DNA of 64,000 nucleotides, taken from positions 992,001 through 1,056,000 of the forward strand of contig NC_042999.1 in NCBI RefSeq assembly GCF_006345805.1. Reading direction: 5' to 3'. The position numbers were made by a program, and so were the translations under genes. Positions 10,426-47,300 of this stretch are shown in pieces. Position 1 is the stretch's first letter. Each line of letters opens with the position of its first letter. The stretch is from Octopus sinensis. Its lineage: Eukaryota. The notes beneath the pieces are model-generated. The model was not told the DNA's origin and did no database searches. It worked only from the letters and a program-made list of their open reading frames with translations.

Positions 10426-10589
10426 CTGATAAAACTGACTTGGAAAAGGATGCATGGACTTCGATCATGTAATAATATAAATAATATATAAATGTATACA
10501 TACATACATATATGCATGTATTTATATATGTGTTTACAACAAACAAGATGAGGACTAGCAACCGTCAAATGTAAATAATGTAAATAAAA

Positions 10590-19449: not shown

Positions 19450-20298
19450 AAAATTCTTCATTACAAGAAGTAAGGAAGTACATTAGATTTTGAAAAGAAA
19501 GTTTTACAAATTTATTTGAACGATCAAACTCATTTATGACATTTTCTTCACATATTTATACAACATATAACATTCTCATAATTGCTTTCAGATCGCGTCT
19601 CATGATATAAATAATAGTAAAAAAGCAAAAAAAAAACGGCAAATTTTATTTCAATTTAAAAATATCTTTATTCGGTGCCATCCACAATTGTTTCCAATAA
19701 TATTATGACACTTAATATAACAAAACAATTTTATTACTCTCAGCAAAACTGACTAATATAATTAGCTCTTTGGCCAGCAGAGATGGTTTCAAATTAATCA
19801 AATATTTTTATTGTGATCTGGTAATTAAAAACAAAAAAACGAAATCAAAAATAACATTATCCATTATCCATTATTCTAAAGAGATTATCAATAACTGTAA
19901 GAAAGAAAATTAACGGAACCTGATCAAAACTGTTGTTTCACTGAATCTGCTCTGCCATTAGATCTGTCCATTGTTAATTGCAGATAATATATTCTTACCC
20001 TACACTCTGATTTTTATCACAATTTTGTCAACAGCTATTCTTGAAAACTGACGATATTTGATTTATAAATTGGAATATATATTTATTGTTATATTTCGGG
20101 ATAGTCATATTTTTCTTTGTTTTTTTTTTTACCAAATAAACACACGCACTGTATATTCGTTCTTCACTTCAGATATATTATTGTTCTTATTTTAGTGTCC
20201 TTTGTCTGTCCCACATCCTGTTACCTCTTCAACGACTCTCCATCCCGCCTGTCTCCTCCTGTTCTGTTTAGTCCACACATTTAATTGGAAGATATCCA

Positions 20299-20435
20299 TA
20301 GGCGCAGGTGTGGTAGTGTGGTACGAAGTATATTTCCCAACCACGTCATGGGTTCAGTCCCACTGCATAACACCTTGCGCAACTGTTTTCTATTATAGCT
20401 TCAGACTGACCAAAGCCTTGTGTGTAGATTTCATA
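20299..20435 (+). mobile_element. SINE family B, 5' part
   Basis: aggcgcaggtgtggtagtgtggt..ggttcagtcccactgc..gaccaaagccttgtg. Confidence 0.7.
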
Positions 20436-20493
20436 GATTGTTTTCGGATTTTGATAGAAACTGACGCATCTGAAATCTGAAGATATACATATA

Positions 20494-20570
20494 GAGGGCA
20501 TATGGCGTAGTGGATAAGAGCGCTGGCTACTAATCCCAAAATTCCGAGTTCGACTGCAGGCAGTCACCTA
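20494..20570 (+). mobile_element. tRNA-derived head (family E) followed by (TAA)n
   Basis: A box TGGCGTAGTGG at 20503-20513, B-box-like GAGTTCGACTGC at 20546-20557; the acceptor stem does not close, so not a functional tRNA. Confidence 0.7.
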
Positions 20571-20580
20571 AATAATAGTA

Positions 20581-20611
<31 letters not shown>

Positions 20612-20613
<2 letters not shown>

Positions 20614-21155
20614 GCCCTGATGCAGTACCAGGCAGTGGCTCTCATGGCTTTTGATCTTAACTGATTGGCAGTGTTATCATGTACGTGGTTTTGTCTTGGT
20701 ATAAAAGATGGGCTACAGCAAATATTCTGCTCAGTACCATAGATTTGCTTGTCAGTTGCTTGACCTTAACCAGTTGAGCATGTCCCTTAGTGGCTGACGA
20801 TATGTGTATCTCTGATCATGAACAGAAGTAGTGGGGGAGCATCATAACCAAGTGTTGAGAGGGATTCTTTGAGGTTTGGATAATTCACCTCTGGAAACAT
20901 GGGTGCTCCATTCAACATCCTTAAAAATCCCTTATTCAGGGACGTTTTGAGCGGGATGCGTTACTCGACCAGAAGTAAATTCTAACTGGGCCCCACCTGC
21001 AAGGTCATGTGCTGTTTATCTTGATATGAGATCACCGTATCACGCACATATGGCTGTGATGCATGTGCCTAGTGTCCCCTTATCAGACGGGTAGTCATGA
21101 TGGGTACACTGGGCTTCGTATGTTTTACCCCAGTGTCACTTTGATGGCATGCACT

Positions 21156-21199
<44 letters not shown>
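20612..21199 (+). mobile_element. Element D, full length, inserted in (AAT)n
   Basis: About 550-bp non-coding repeat with five other copies in the window; ends in ctctct(c)a-(AAT)n; orientation inferred from the tail. Confidence 0.85.
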
Positions 21200-21292
21200 A
21201 AAAATAATAATAATAATAATTATAATAATGATAATAATAATAACATCAAAAAATACCTTAGAAATGAGAACCCAGGTTCGAAATTTCCCCAA

Positions 21293-21338
21293 GACACCTG
21301 AAGAAGGCTGGAGGATATATCAGCCGAAACGTTGTGTT
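21293..21338 (+). ncRNA. Minimal Penelope-type hammerhead ribozyme motif
   Basis: GACAC-CTGAAGA-A-GGCTG(loop)CAGCC-GAAA-C-GTT-GTGTT: stem I GACAC/GTGTT, catalytic core CUGANGA and GAAA, palindromic AACGTT in place of stem III. Confidence 0.7.
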
Positions 21339-21616
21339 AACAACAAACAAGATGAGGACAAATATCCGTCAAATGTAAATAATGTAAATACAGTATCTTT
21401 GTTTGTCACATAAGCTATAAGGTGCATGTTACTTATACTGCTATTTCAGTATTAAAGCAATGCTCTTTGGTTCTCACTGGAATTCGTTCGTTTTTACATA
21501 TTTGGCATTCTATCGTCATATGTTTGAAAATTTATTCGAATTTCAAAAACGATAAACAAAAGTTATTGAGGACAAGTGGAGCTACAAAAAATTACAAAAC
21601 GAAACGATAAAAATAT

Positions 21617-22646
21617 TCTTTTTACCTTTACCCAAGTCACAAGGCCCGAACATTTTGTGGGAGGGAGCCACTCCATTAGATCGACACCAGTACGCAAGTG
21701 CTACTTAATTTATCGACCCCGAAAGGTTGCAATGCAAAGCCGAACTCCGCGGAATTTGAACTCAGAACGTAAAGACAGACGAAATACCACTAAGCACTTT
21801 ATCCGACATGCTAACGTTTCTGCCAGCTTGCCACTTTGAAACGATAAAAATATTCTTTTCTACTCTAGGCACAAGGCCCAGAATTTGGGGGTATGGCGCC
21901 AGTCGATTAGAACAACCCCAGTACGCAACTGGTACCTAATTTATGAACCCCGAAAGGATGAAAGGCGAAGTCGACCTAGGCGGAATTAGCCAACGAAATA
22001 TAGTCTTAGCGATAGTGAGACAAAGTCGATGTCAGCGGAATTTGAACTCAGAACGTAAAGTCAGAGGAAATACCTATTTCTTTATTACCCACAAGGGCTT
22101 AAAAACAGAGCGGACAGACAAACGGATTAAGTCGATTATATCGACCTCAGTGCGTAACTGGTACTTAATTTATCGACCCCGAAAGGATAAAAGGCAAAGT
22201 CGACCTCGGAGGAATTTGAACTCAGAACGTAAAGGCAGAGGAAATACCTATTTCTTTATTACCCACAAGGGGCTAAACACAGAGCGGACAGACAAACGGA
22301 TTAAGTCGATTATATCGACCTCAGTGCGTAACTGGTACTTAATTTATCGACCCCGAAAGGATAAAAGGCAAAGTCGACCTCGGAGGAATATGAACTCAGA
22401 ACGTAAAGGCAGAGGAAATACCTATTTCTTTATTACCCACAAGGGGCTAAACACAGAGCGGACAGACAAACGGATTAAGTCGATTATATCGACCTCAGTG
22501 CGTAACTGGTACTTAATTTATCGACCCCGAAAGAATGAAAGGCAAAGTCGACCTCGGAGGAATTTGAACTCAGAACGTAAAGGCAGACGAAATACCGCTA
22601 AGCATTATCGCCTGGCGTGCTAACGTTTCTGCCAGCTGGCCGCCTT
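21617..22646 (-). mobile_element. Stack of family A SINEs, including a 174-bp internal tandem array
   Basis: Monomer at 21617-21836, then a multimer with gaggaaatacc recurring at 22064, 22238 and 22412. Confidence 0.9.
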
Positions 22647-23865: not shown

Positions 23866-24333
23866 GAGAGTGAGAGACTAGTGCATGCGATAAAAGTGAC
23901 ACTGGGGTAAAATATACGAAGCCCAGTATACCCATCATGACTACCCGTCTGATAAGTGTACACTAGGCACATGCACCACAACCATATGTGCACGTCAAGG
24001 TGATCTTATATCAAGATAAACAGCGCATGACCATTTAGAATTTTCTTCTGATCGAGTAACCCATCCCGCTCAAAAGATCCCTGAATAAGGCTTGTTTAAG
24101 GATGATGAACGAAACACCCATGTTTCCAAGCATAAATTATTCAAACCCCAAAGAATTCCTTTCAACACACGGATATGATGCTCCCCCACTACTTCTGCTC
24201 GTGATCAGAGACGCACATATCGTCATCTACCAAGGGACATAATCAACTGGTTAAGGTCAAACAACTGATAAGCAAATCTGTGGTATTGAGCAGAATATTT
24301 GCTGTAGCCCATCTTTTATACCAAGACAAAACA
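23866..24333 (-). mobile_element. Element D
   Basis: Reverse complement of the 20612 element, abutting (ATT)n. Confidence 0.85.
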
Positions 24334-25246: not shown

Positions 25247-25323
25247 TACATACAGACAAAGAGATAAATACACACAGATAAAGTGATAAATTCACACAGA
25301 TAAAGGGGTAAATACACACACCA

Positions 25324-26850
25324 TCAGATAAAGGGAAAGACATCTGCGTGATTTCTGGTGAAATTTATGATAGGCTGGCACTAGAAATTTTAAGCAATGA
25401 CAGACTATATTCTAAAGTGACAGCTACAGCCTCGACCAGGATTGAGGACCGAATTAACACCGCATATACTGACATTTGTAGACGGAGACAACTACATAGC
25501 AAATACAAGTATAACTTCATCACAAAGAACAGTAGATTACCCAGATTCTATAATCTCATTAAAACACACAAAGATAGCAACACAATCCAGATTAAACCCA
25601 TAGTCTCCAGCGTGAAAGGACCTCTATATATAATATCCTGGCTACGTTCTCATATCCTGAAACCCATAGTCCCCACCTTTCCTGAACACATCAAGAACTC
25701 CGACGAAGTCATCAAAAGACTGCGCCAACTGCCACCTGACCAACTCAGGCAAAACAGATATGCCTTTAGTCTTGACGTTGTCTCAATGTACACAACGGAA
25801 CTAGCACACTCAGCGGTCAGCCTATTGACTGACTGCATAGTAGCGTCCGACATCCACTGCTTCGGACTCACCGCAGCTGATATACATCTGCCATTGTCCA
25901 TCATCGTGGACAACACCAACTTCTCTTTTTACGATCACATATACAAACAGACGACGGGTCTCCCCATGAGATCCAGTCTCTCAGGCCTATTAGCCATCAC
26001 ATAATGAAACATCTGGAACGTCGAGCACTCAATGTCTGCCGTTCATGCACCTTCTTCACCAGGTACATAGAGACAGAATATTCACGACGTTCAACAACAT
26101 GGACATGAACATACGGTTCACTATAGAACATCCCGACAACACTGGATCACAATTGCTACTTGACTTCCAACTGAATATAACGGAAGAAGGGGAGATCCAC
26201 AGTGAGTTCTACAGGAAAGCAGCCAGTAGAGATATGTTTGTTCAGTACAGTTCAGCTCTTCCACTCGCCAGAAACGAACTTGCACGAGCCCAGAGCAAGT
26301 GCAGCAGGACAGAGGACAAGGTGACCCATACTACACGCTTGCTAGAAATATTGAAAACCAGCGGGTACCGTATATCCATTATAAATCGGCGCAAGTACCC
26401 AAGACAACAGACACGTCGAACACACAGAAAACTCAGCAACACATGCTCCCTTAAAATACCCCATTTTAGCAGTCATCCGAAGAGCCATAAGAAGAGAAGG
26501 ACTAAACATACAACTAACCCACTCCAGCCCCTCTCTGAGAAGACACCTAGCAAAGAAGGGAGCAAAGGACAACAATCAATGTACACTGGGTAACTTCCCA
26601 ATCCGTGACATAATTAATGCCAACGGGTATAGAATACAATGTAACAAATGCAACAAGTTCTATGTGGGTAGCACAAGTCCATTACACATTCGCATCAAAG
26701 AACATCTGAACACAAGAGCCTCCTCCTTCAGAAAACATCTAGACAGATCCCAGAACACCGACAAAAGCATAACAGTCACAATTAAGGCCAGTGAAAGAAA
26801 TTTGAATAATCTAAGAATTAAGGAAGCTATCCTCATAGCATTAAGTCCCC
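25324..26850 (+). mobile_element. Degraded Penelope-like element (reverse transcriptase + GIY-YIG endonuclease)
   Basis: SDKG, LPRFYNLIKTHK, IKPIVSSVKGPLY, FSLDVVSMYT, YKQTTGLPM, FTIEH, FYRK; C-terminal YRIQCNKCNKFYVGSTS..RIKEH..LRIKEAILI; frameshifted. Confidence 0.9.
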
Positions 26851-33577: not shown

Positions 33578-34051
33578 TTGAGTGAGAGCAGTGCATGCCA
33601 TCAAAGTGACACTGGGGTAAATTATACGAAGCCCAGTATACCCATCATGACTATTCGTCTGATTAGGGTACACCAGGCACATGCATCACAACCATATGTG
33701 CGCGGCATGGTGATCTCATATCACGATAAACAGCGCATGACGTTGCAGGTGTGGACCAGCTAGAATTTTCTTCTGGTCGAGTAACCCATCCCGCTCAAAA
33801 GGTCCCTGAATAAGGGTTATTTAAGGATGTTGAAAGAACCACCCATGTTTCCATAGGTGAATTATCCAAATCCCAAAGAATTCCTCTCAACACATAGCTA
33901 TGATGCTCCCCCACTACTTCTGCTCGTGATCAGAGATGCACATATCGTCAGCCACTAAGGGACATGCTCAACTGGTTAAGGTCAAACAACTGACAAGCAA
34001 ATCTGTGGTATTGAGCAGAATATTTTCTGTAGCCCATCTTTTATACTAAGA

Positions 34052-34052
<1 letters not shown>
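33578..34052 (-). mobile_element. Element D, flanked by (ATT)n on both sides
   Basis: High similarity to the other D copies. Confidence 0.85.
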
Positions 34053-34096
<44 letters not shown>

Positions 34097-40397: not shown

Positions 40398-40936
40398 TGA
40401 GTGAGAGAGCAGTACATGCCATCAAAGTGACACTGGGGTAAATATACGAAGCCCAGTACCCTCTGATTAGGGTATACTAGACACATGCATCACAAGCACG
40501 TGTGCGACATGGTGATCTCATATCAAGATAAACAGCACATGACCTTGCAGGTGGGGTGCCAGTTAGAATTTTCTTTAGGTCGAGTAACCCATCCACCTCA
40601 AAGGCTCCCTGAATAAGGGTTGTTTAAGGATGTTGAGCGAACCACCCATGTTTCCAGAGGTGAATTATTCAAACCCCAAAGAATCCCTCTCAACACAGGG
40701 CTATGATGCTCCCCCACTACTTATGCTCGTGATCAGAGATGCACATATCGTCAGTCACTAAGGGACATGCTCAACTGGTTAAGGTCAAACAACTGACAAG
40801 CAAATCTGTGGTATTGAGCAGAATATTTTCTGTAGCCCATCTTTTATACCAAGACAAAACAATGTACATGATAACACTTCCAATCAGTTAAGATCAGAAG
40901 CCATGAGAGCCACTGTCTGGTTCGGCATCAGGGCAT
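40398..40936 (-). mobile_element. Element D, full length
   Basis: Reverse complement of 20612-21160. Confidence 0.85.
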
Positions 40937-40964
40937 GATTTTTATTGTTATTATCATTATTATT

Positions 40965-41125
40965 ATGTGCTGTTTATCTTGATATGAGATCACCATGCCG
41001 CGCACATATGGTTGCGATGCATGTAACTAGAGTACCCTTATCAGACGGGTAGACATGATGGGTAAACTGGGCTTCATATATTTTACCCCAGTGTCACTTC
41101 GATGGCATGCATTGCTCTCTCACTC
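40965..41125 (+). mobile_element. Element D, 3' fragment, inverted relative to the preceding copy
   Basis: atgtgctgtttatcttgatatgag..ctctctcactc followed by (AAT)n. Confidence 0.85.
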
Positions 41126-41358
<233 letters not shown>

Positions 41359-41547
41359 AACATAGAAAAATACCTTAGGAATGAGAACCCAGGGGTTCGA
41401 AATTTCCCCCAAGACTACTGATGAAGCTTGGAAGTGTATATCAGCCGAAACGTTGTGTTAACAACAAACAAGATGAGGACAGATATCTGTCAAATATAAA
41501 TAATGTAAATAATTTACATAATTTGTCATCTCTTAAATATAGCACTA
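41359..41547 (+). mobile_element. Second copy of the hammerhead-containing tail (degenerate ribozyme at 41413-41459)
   Basis: aataccttaggaatgagaacccagg..CTGATGA..cagccGAAAcgttgtgttaacaacaaacaagatgagg. Confidence 0.8.
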
Positions 41548-46230: not shown

Positions 46231-46727
46231 AAGGGAGCAGCCCATGCCTTCAAAGTGACACTGAGGTTACAAATATACAAAGCCCAGTATACCTATCATG
46301 ACTACTCGTCCGACAAGGGTACATCACAACCATATATGTGCGACATGGTGATCTCATATCAAAATAAACAACACATGACCTTGCAGGTGGAACCCAGTTA
46401 GAATTTTCTTCAGGTTGACTAGTCCATTGTGCTCAAAAGGTCCCTGAATAAGCGTTGTTGAATGATGTTGAATGAAATACCCATGTTTCCAGAGGTAAAT
46501 CATTCAAACCCTAAAGAATTCCTATCAACACATGGTTATGATGATCCCTCACTACTTCTTGCTCGTGATCAGAGACGTACATATCGTCAGCTACCAAGGG
46601 GCATGCTCAGCAACTGACAAGCAAATCTGTGGTATTGAGAAGAATATTTGCTGTAGCCCACCATTTATACCAAGGCAAAACAATGTACATGATTACACTT
46701 CCAATCAGTTAAGATCAGAAGCCATAA
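46231..46727 (-). mobile_element. Element D
   Basis: catgccttcaaagtgacactg..ttaagatcagaagccat, next to (ATT)n. Confidence 0.8.
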
Positions 46728-47300
46728 GGCGGCGAACTGGCAGAAACGTTAGCACGCCGGGCGAAATGAGTCGCCGTATTTTGTCTACCGTTACGTTCTG
46801 AGTTCAAATTCCGCCGAGGTAGACTTTGCCTTTCATCCTTTCAGGGTCGATTAAATAAGTACCAGTTACGCACTGGGGTCGATATAATCGACTTAATCCG
46901 TTTATCTGTCCTTGTTTGTCCCCTCTGTGTGTAGCCCCTTATGGGCAGTAAAGAAATAGGTATTTCGTCTGCCGCTACGTTCTGAGTTCAAATTCCACCG
47001 AGGTCGACTTTGCCTTTCATCCTTTAGGGGTCTATTAAATAAGTACCAGTAACGCACTGGGGTTGATATAATCGACTTAATCCGTTTGTTTAGCCTTGTT
47101 TTTCCCTCCTGTGTGTAGCCCCTTGTGGCTATTAAGGAAATAAAAAACGTTAGCATGCCGGGCGAAATGCTTAACCGAGGTCGACTTTGCCTTTCATCTT
47201 TTCGGAGTCGATAAATTAACTACCATTTGCATACTGGGGTCGATCTAATCGATTGGTTCCCACTCCAAAAATTTCGGGCCTTGTGCCTAGAGTAGAAAAG
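46728..47300 (+). mobile_element. SINE family A multimer
   Basis: Head ggcggcgaactggcagaaacgttag, three core units, tail ttgtgcctagagtagaaaag. Confidence 0.9.

Follow-up and report, generated by a model that had tools for sequence, protein, structure and literature searches.

A tRNA-headed, hammerhead-bearing repeat of Octopus sinensis as the probable pLTR of an autonomous Penelope-type element

Identity of the unit

A tRNA-like head, a (TAA)n spacer and a tail with a hammerhead motif, which follow one another in a 64,000-nucleotide stretch of Octopus sinensis DNA (the window), almost certainly form the pLTR of an autonomous Penelope-type element, because the head adjoins the end of the Penelope ORF and the tail runs into its start. 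From the ORF end, the parts run through a 35-nt leader, the head, the (TAA)n and the tail to the ORF start. Among 29 loci seeded on the ORF, 26 have the head directly 3' of where the Penelope ORF ends (22 of 25 when duplicated loci are collapsed), and the same order of ORF end and head is found in 29 of 30 leader-seeded loci. A Penelope-type ORF end also precedes the tail at L015. The tail continues unbroken into the ORF in most of the 26 loci seeded on the N-terminus, and L428 and L433 hold the entire tandem joint from ORF end through head and tail to ORF start, in keeping with a pLTR, which in partial tandems links the end of the ORF with its start. Contigs spanning the ORF–head joint occur in runs under five organism codes, and no relative of the element was found among viral contigs.

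The tail corresponds to the first ~53 codons of the Penelope ORF. In its majority sequence one frame, beginning with an ATG at tail position 21, is open. When a real tail copy is translated, it matches the N-terminus of P0024, an intact 847-aa relative, with 43% identity across 46 aa (E = 2e-5), and the match is centred on the residues encoded by the hammerhead. The ORF carries an RT domain (PF00078). Its C-terminal pieces gave no Pfam match at E ≤ 0.01, and the C-terminal endonuclease was assigned by alignment to intact relatives; we take it to be of the GIY-YIG type, partly from known motifs. [quoted passage not shown] Relatives of the ORF reach 70% identity, and together with the domain order they would place the element in the Penelope/Poseidon clade.

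The original prediction regarded the unit as a separate, non-autonomous SINE/retrozyme hybrid. This separateness has to be given up, as the head and the whole unit are those of the autonomous element's pLTR and a solo-only subfamily is not significant. A SINE2 lineage is distinct from its partner, which lacks the head, and here the partner itself has the head. The remnant at 25312..26840 (+ strand), formerly proposed as the Penelope partner, was rejected as such; it belongs to a different Penelope-like family, with no match to the tail and 29% protein identity to the family of the element. At least two further Penelope-like families are present in the sampled DNA (L143:303-1829; L123; L165; window 25312-26840), and L143 contains a 509-codon open stretch.

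The copy in the window and its neighbours

The head, the AAT tract with its inserted element D, the tail and the hammerhead were all found on the + strand where they had been described. The head occupies 20496..20572, with the A box at 20503-20513 and the B box at 20548-20556; its tRNA-like nature and its boxes stand, and the tRNA +1 position is 20496 instead of 20494. The final C of the B box is changed to G. The spacer consists of a left portion (20573..20611) and a right portion (21200..21243) on either side of element D (20612..21199), an unrelated repeat of ~545 nt plus (TC)n that interrupted the copy at a later time. The tail, equivalent to the 5' end of the Penelope ORF (21244..21390; first ATG of the frame at 21264), terminates at the shorter of the two end sites of the family, and the minimal type I hammerhead motif (21293..21338, predicted cut after 21333) overlaps the ORF start. 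The copy combines head and tail variants in a way that is rare in the family (1 of 17). Because its B box is damaged and its variant combination is rare, it is probably an ordinary member of its family that is itself dead, and because of the same rarity its own head-tail link is not proven by the variants.

A second tail copy (41355..41542, + strand) extends to the long end site and has D pieces and (AAT)n upstream. The claimed recurrence of (AAT)n plus tail at 41 kb stands, with a tail that is 90% identical; both hammerhead stems contain mismatches, the hammerhead fold is lost and no head is seen at this copy. A third, partial copy (10529..10586, + strand), comprising only the 3' part of the tail and no hammerhead, adds to the two copies named earlier in the window.

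Element D has no long open frame and resides in (AAT)n tracts, often within the pLTR spacer; full copies have AAT upstream in 17 of 19 cases and downstream in 18 of 19, in a sample biased to loci of the pLTR family. Besides 20612-21199, D lies at 23880-24332, 33589-34053, 40410-41114 and 46243-46728, and five more copies or pieces were counted in the window. The (TAA)n spacer also receives LINE ends or pieces at L007, L023, L047, L191, L259 and L283, which presumably are of the R4/Dong type. As LINE ends settle there too, several elements use the spacer as a landing pad. Other abundant repeats, tRNA-like or SINE-like, flank the element at 20292-20437 and 21620-22600, and among them is a 174-184-nt tandem family of which the window holds many copies.

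The tRNA-derived head and its linkage to the tail

ARAGORN and Rfam made no tRNA call on the head. When the family majority head was aligned with 20 distinct genomic tRNAs from six isotypes, z reached 8 (best with Arg-TCT), and the values for Ala (z 7.6) and Lys (z 7.1) are so close that the isotype is not firm. The A and B boxes lie at tRNA spacing and are kept in the majority head, so that the unit shares with SINE2 elements a tRNA-derived head with both boxes. From these features, the pLTR head is likely to be a captured Pol III promoter. Three RNA-seq runs of related label, made from standard libraries in which read-through copies dominate, showed no pile-up of RNA starts or ends and nearly equal coverage of the two strands, which counts against a Pol III start at the head.

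The linkage of head and tail, for which the window offered a single case, is borne out across the genome. Of 70 heads taken in genome order along contig 1, 63 are followed downstream by a tail in the same orientation, in 57 cases within 400 nt, and one head variant is inherited together with one tail variant (16 of 17 versus 23 of 89). Across the genome, a 34-nt hammerhead pattern is matched exactly 2645 times, a 25-nt head pattern 1315 times and a leader pattern 563 times; reversed control patterns gave 0 matches, so the hammerhead and head patterns do not recur by chance. About 9 insertions in 700 kb of stretches chosen by position suggest a total of roughly 35,000 insertions (16,000-66,000) in the 2.72-Gb genome. 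L428, L429, L431, L434 and L437 jump from ~400-460 nt inside the ORF directly to the tail or ORF end, and may possibly represent a recurring, internally deleted non-autonomous form.

Insertion marks

The lengths of the tails, the two-armed inverted insertions and the target duplications are textbook Penelope. The tail ends gather in two places, about 137-158 and 180 (90 copies at the latter), and 87 head-to-head pairs were found. Both ends fall at a site in 57 of the 68 pairs that were not seeded on the tail: 53 are long/short, 4 short/short and none long/long. The two arms of a pair share variants (56 versus 20.3 ± 4.3 in shuffled data), and direct repeats of at least 8 nt flank 38 of 75 pairs, compared with 2.8 after shuffling, so that a head-to-head pair is the product of one event. 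An optional 30-40-nt tail at one end and an inverted 5'-truncated arm, both typical of EN+ PLEs, are thus present; inverted arms and one-sided tails are known in PLEs (PMC8557442, in the part available). The two end sites, the long/short arms, the target duplications and the pLTR identity support the proposal that the unit is mobilised by Penelope machinery.

The hammerhead

As in other EN+ PLEs, a minimal type I hammerhead is present in the pLTR. Stem I is formed by 21293-21297 with 21334-21338, stem II by 21306-21310 with 21321-21325, and the core by 21298-21304 and 21326-21329, with a bulged A after A9 and a palindromic CG; stems, core, palindrome and predicted cut all match the earlier description. 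Stems I and II together are the minimum-energy fold of the hammerhead, yet z is -1.24 against shuffled sequences, and Rfam made no hammerhead call on this region. Core, stems and palindrome are all intact in 38 of 169 copies. The hammerhead had been expected to be better conserved than its surroundings, which is not the case: across 200 tails the substitution rate is 4.2% in the core and 4.5% in the flanks, a comparison of little power because inserted copies decay neutrally. N7 of the hammerhead (tail position 59, window 21302) is the sole free core position and also the site of the main subfamily variant, which is an Asp/Glu wobble in the overlapping frame.

All long copies run across the cut site; they begin ~200 nt before it and reach 55-90 nt beyond. 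Since the copies cross the cut site and the core decays like its flanks, a role for self-cleavage in producing the unit is not supported. The hammerhead, whose cleavage is predicted only, would then be a passenger in the inserted copies.

The 5' boundary

Of the 70 heads, 54 stop within ~8 nt of +1, giving the unit the defined 5' end at the head that SINE2 elements have, while 14 continue into the ORF and 2 retain ~22 nt of the leader. The upstream stop rate of 1 per 306 nt, which rests on 30 BLAST-defined ends of copies that pass the leader, measured against one decayed copy, predicts 3.2% of stops here, and the observed stops thus form a 24-fold hotspot. The end of the leader and the start of the head make a 5-bp palindrome, and 29 of the 54 boundary stops carry a palindrome or fold-back, so that DNA structure accounts for part of the hotspot. 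The other 25 lack such traces and are still 11-fold over background (P = 8e-20). An inverted arm or short inverted piece is found at 37 of the 70 heads, and in many cases the inverted arm has its start inside the tail or spacer though the direct arm ends at the head. L418 and L423 begin at the head and continue into the ORF. That RNase P cutting at +1 produces the boundary was considered and dismissed, since leader bases are retained at most stops (A at -2 in 37 of 54). The boundary fits Pol III initiation 2-7 nt upstream of the head, with palindrome-driven switching explaining part of it.

TTTT on the coding strand

A near-full copy of the ORF has no TTTT in 2320 sense nt, where Markov models expect 3.0-4.7 (P 0.003-0.04), and none in 2154 nt read in frame, where synonymous shuffling gives an expectation of 3.8 (P = 0.008); TTT runs in this copy are at normal levels. 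In 128 ORF pieces (71 kb) there are 23 TTTT, all private and present in at most 12.5% of copies per column in columns at least 15 copies deep. The majority sequences of head and tail contain no TTTT. Four other PLE pieces in the O. sinensis genome have 10 TTTT versus 9.8 expected, and TTTT is absent from 2 of 11 other coding pieces. In 60 PLE segments from metagenome records, 227 TTTT were counted against 180 expected; 2 of these segments (L311 and L322, one family) are equally depleted over an ORF of ~2 kb, with 6 TTTT in a T-rich region behind the ORF and no tRNA head. L231 has no TTTT in 1526 nt. TTTT occurs behind the ORF in 21 of 22 relatives, and tRNA alignment gave no clear tRNA head in these 22 (1 with z > 2, at z 2.6), whereas 11 of 12 loci of the octopus family, used as the positive control, exceed z 2. 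As the avoidance concerns one lineage and was noticed post hoc, it is a lead, not proof.

How the copies may arise

On balance, the element in the window is probably a lone, decayed pLTR copy of a family in which a Pol III start at the head likely sets the 5' boundary and the element's own enzyme likely copies the RNA, and it is reasonably probable that the templates are short RNAs made by Pol III. On a master copy, Pol III would begin 2-7 nt before the head. Having no TTTT stop, the RNA would run on to two reverse-transcription start sites, ~55-65 and 90 nt beyond the cut site. The target would be nicked by the RT/GIY-YIG protein, which would prime there on uncut RNA, as shown for PAc of the anole (PMC11167929). 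The cDNA would end at the 5' end of the RNA, where the 5-bp palindrome would favour fold-back, leading to lone copies or to head-to-head arms. Most of the copies that reach the head begin there, likely because Pol III starts there. That Pol III transcribes the whole coding element is a more doubtful extension, with the TTTT-free relative family of L311 and L322 and the unexplained translation of such an RNA counting against it.

The copies might instead be ordinary 5'-truncated ones, in which the tRNA/SINE piece is a passenger and fold-back or annealing at the palindrome, on Pol II or read-through RNA, produces the boundary. This explanation is consistent with the 29 of 54 stops that bear a trace of the palindrome or of fold-back, the inverted pieces at 37 of 70 heads and the 14 heads that continue into the ORF, as well as with the lack of a separate solo lineage and the LINE-like internal promoter of the D. 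virilis Penelope (PMC2377424, in the portion available). However, it leaves aside the excess of stops that carry no palindrome trace and the many cases in which the direct arm ends at the head but the inverted one starts in the tail or spacer, and it does not predict that the A and B boxes are retained in the family majority or that the coding strand lacks TTTT; it is therefore unlikely. Less probable still is an independent, self-cleaving, non-autonomous SINE/retrozyme lineage with its own masters, whose unit is cut out by the hammerhead. SINEs that combine a tRNA promoter with a hammerhead are known in Schistosoma (PMC6765202, in part), and the variant set of head 64A, tail 59A and tail 128G leans to lone copies in the octopus (tail 59A in 13 of 52 lone versus 5 of 52 ORF-attached copies). 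This lean is not significant, however, with P = 0.068 and 0.058 at the best two sites after window-seeded loci were dropped, and the variants also occur on ORF-attached copies; lone and ORF-attached copies are equally diverged (~6% from the majority) and share variants. Variants that had earlier appeared solo-specific did not survive reanalysis, and the use of the window copy as a seed accounts for them. The tail frame is open in the majority sequence, the copies extend past the cut site on both sides, the hammerhead core decays at the rate of its flanks, and the head-to-tail tandem units bounded by cleavage sites that define retrozymes were not seen in the sampled loci, where copies are single or head-to-head. 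A Pol III start at the head of a pLTR thus remains the preferred reading.

Significance and comparison with known systems

The origin of a SINE is usually seen as the joining of a tRNA promoter to the tail of a separate partner element. A promoter inside the end repeat of an autonomous element would offer a direct route from a Penelope to a SINE-like family. If Pol III makes the full coding RNA, an autonomous retrotransposon would here depend on the polymerase that serves small non-coding RNAs. How Penelope inversions and one-sided tails form could be read from a large natural record, since two-armed insertions number tens of thousands, and repeat libraries would misannotate the unit as a SINE. 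Neither a tRNA-headed pLTR nor a Pol III-driven autonomous PLE was found in the literature searched, although Repbase, Dfam, subscription papers or supplements may name the unit; the available parts of the O. vulgaris repeat annotation (PMC13282606) and of SINEBase (PMC3531059) do not mention it. To judge from sequence and from these sources, a pLTR of the Penelope type that has captured a tRNA head, which likely acts as a Pol III promoter, is likely to be a new variant.

The closest counterpart is PAc of Anolis, of the Penelope/Poseidon-type EN+ PLEs (PMC11167929, in part). Like the octopus element, it has one ORF with an RT and a C-terminal endonuclease (~815 codons), a pLTR from ORF end to ORF start, a hammerhead overlapping the ORF start, a pair of internal sites, 30-40 nt apart, at which reverse transcription starts, and an optional 30-40-nt tail, and uncut RNA is its main template. 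EN+ PLEs in general share the inverted 5'-truncated arm and the tail at one end only (PMC8557442, in part). The octopus element differs from PAc and EN+ PLEs in the A/B-box head within the pLTR, the sharp 5' boundary and the sense strand free of TTTT. At the level of the ribozyme there is no difference from the minimal metazoan pLTR hammerheads described in the available part of PMC4209133, which have a short stem I, a bulged base after A9, a G10.1-C11.1 pair and a palindromic 15.2-16.2, and occur mostly as single dispersed motifs from truncated PLEs and as pairs on opposite strands; cleavage of the octopus motif is predicted.

The SINE-like Sm-alpha and Sj-alpha elements of Schistosoma also place a Pol III-type promoter ahead of a type I hammerhead (PMC6765202, in part). 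They are non-coding tandem units released by cleavage, whereas the octopus unit belongs to a coding element as its end repeat, is found as single or head-to-head copies and extends across the cut site. Retrozymes have been described as derivatives of pLTRs (PMC7761336, in part). Non-LTR retrozymes (bioRxiv 10.64898/2026.07.22.740005) likewise are pLTR-derived, non-coding hammerhead copies spread by PLE enzymes, but they are defined by head-to-tail tandems and, in the part of the preprint available, have no tRNA head and come from vertebrate data. The TRIMp3 elements Cassandra, Helenus and Ajax have in common with the octopus unit a small-RNA-derived Pol III promoter within a terminal repeat, thought to derive from a SINE insertion (PMC10886601, in part). 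TRIMp3 elements are non-autonomous LTR elements, whereas the carrier in octopus is an autonomous Penelope-like element, and the tRNA-headed pLTR would thus be the Penelope counterpart of Pol III TRIMs.
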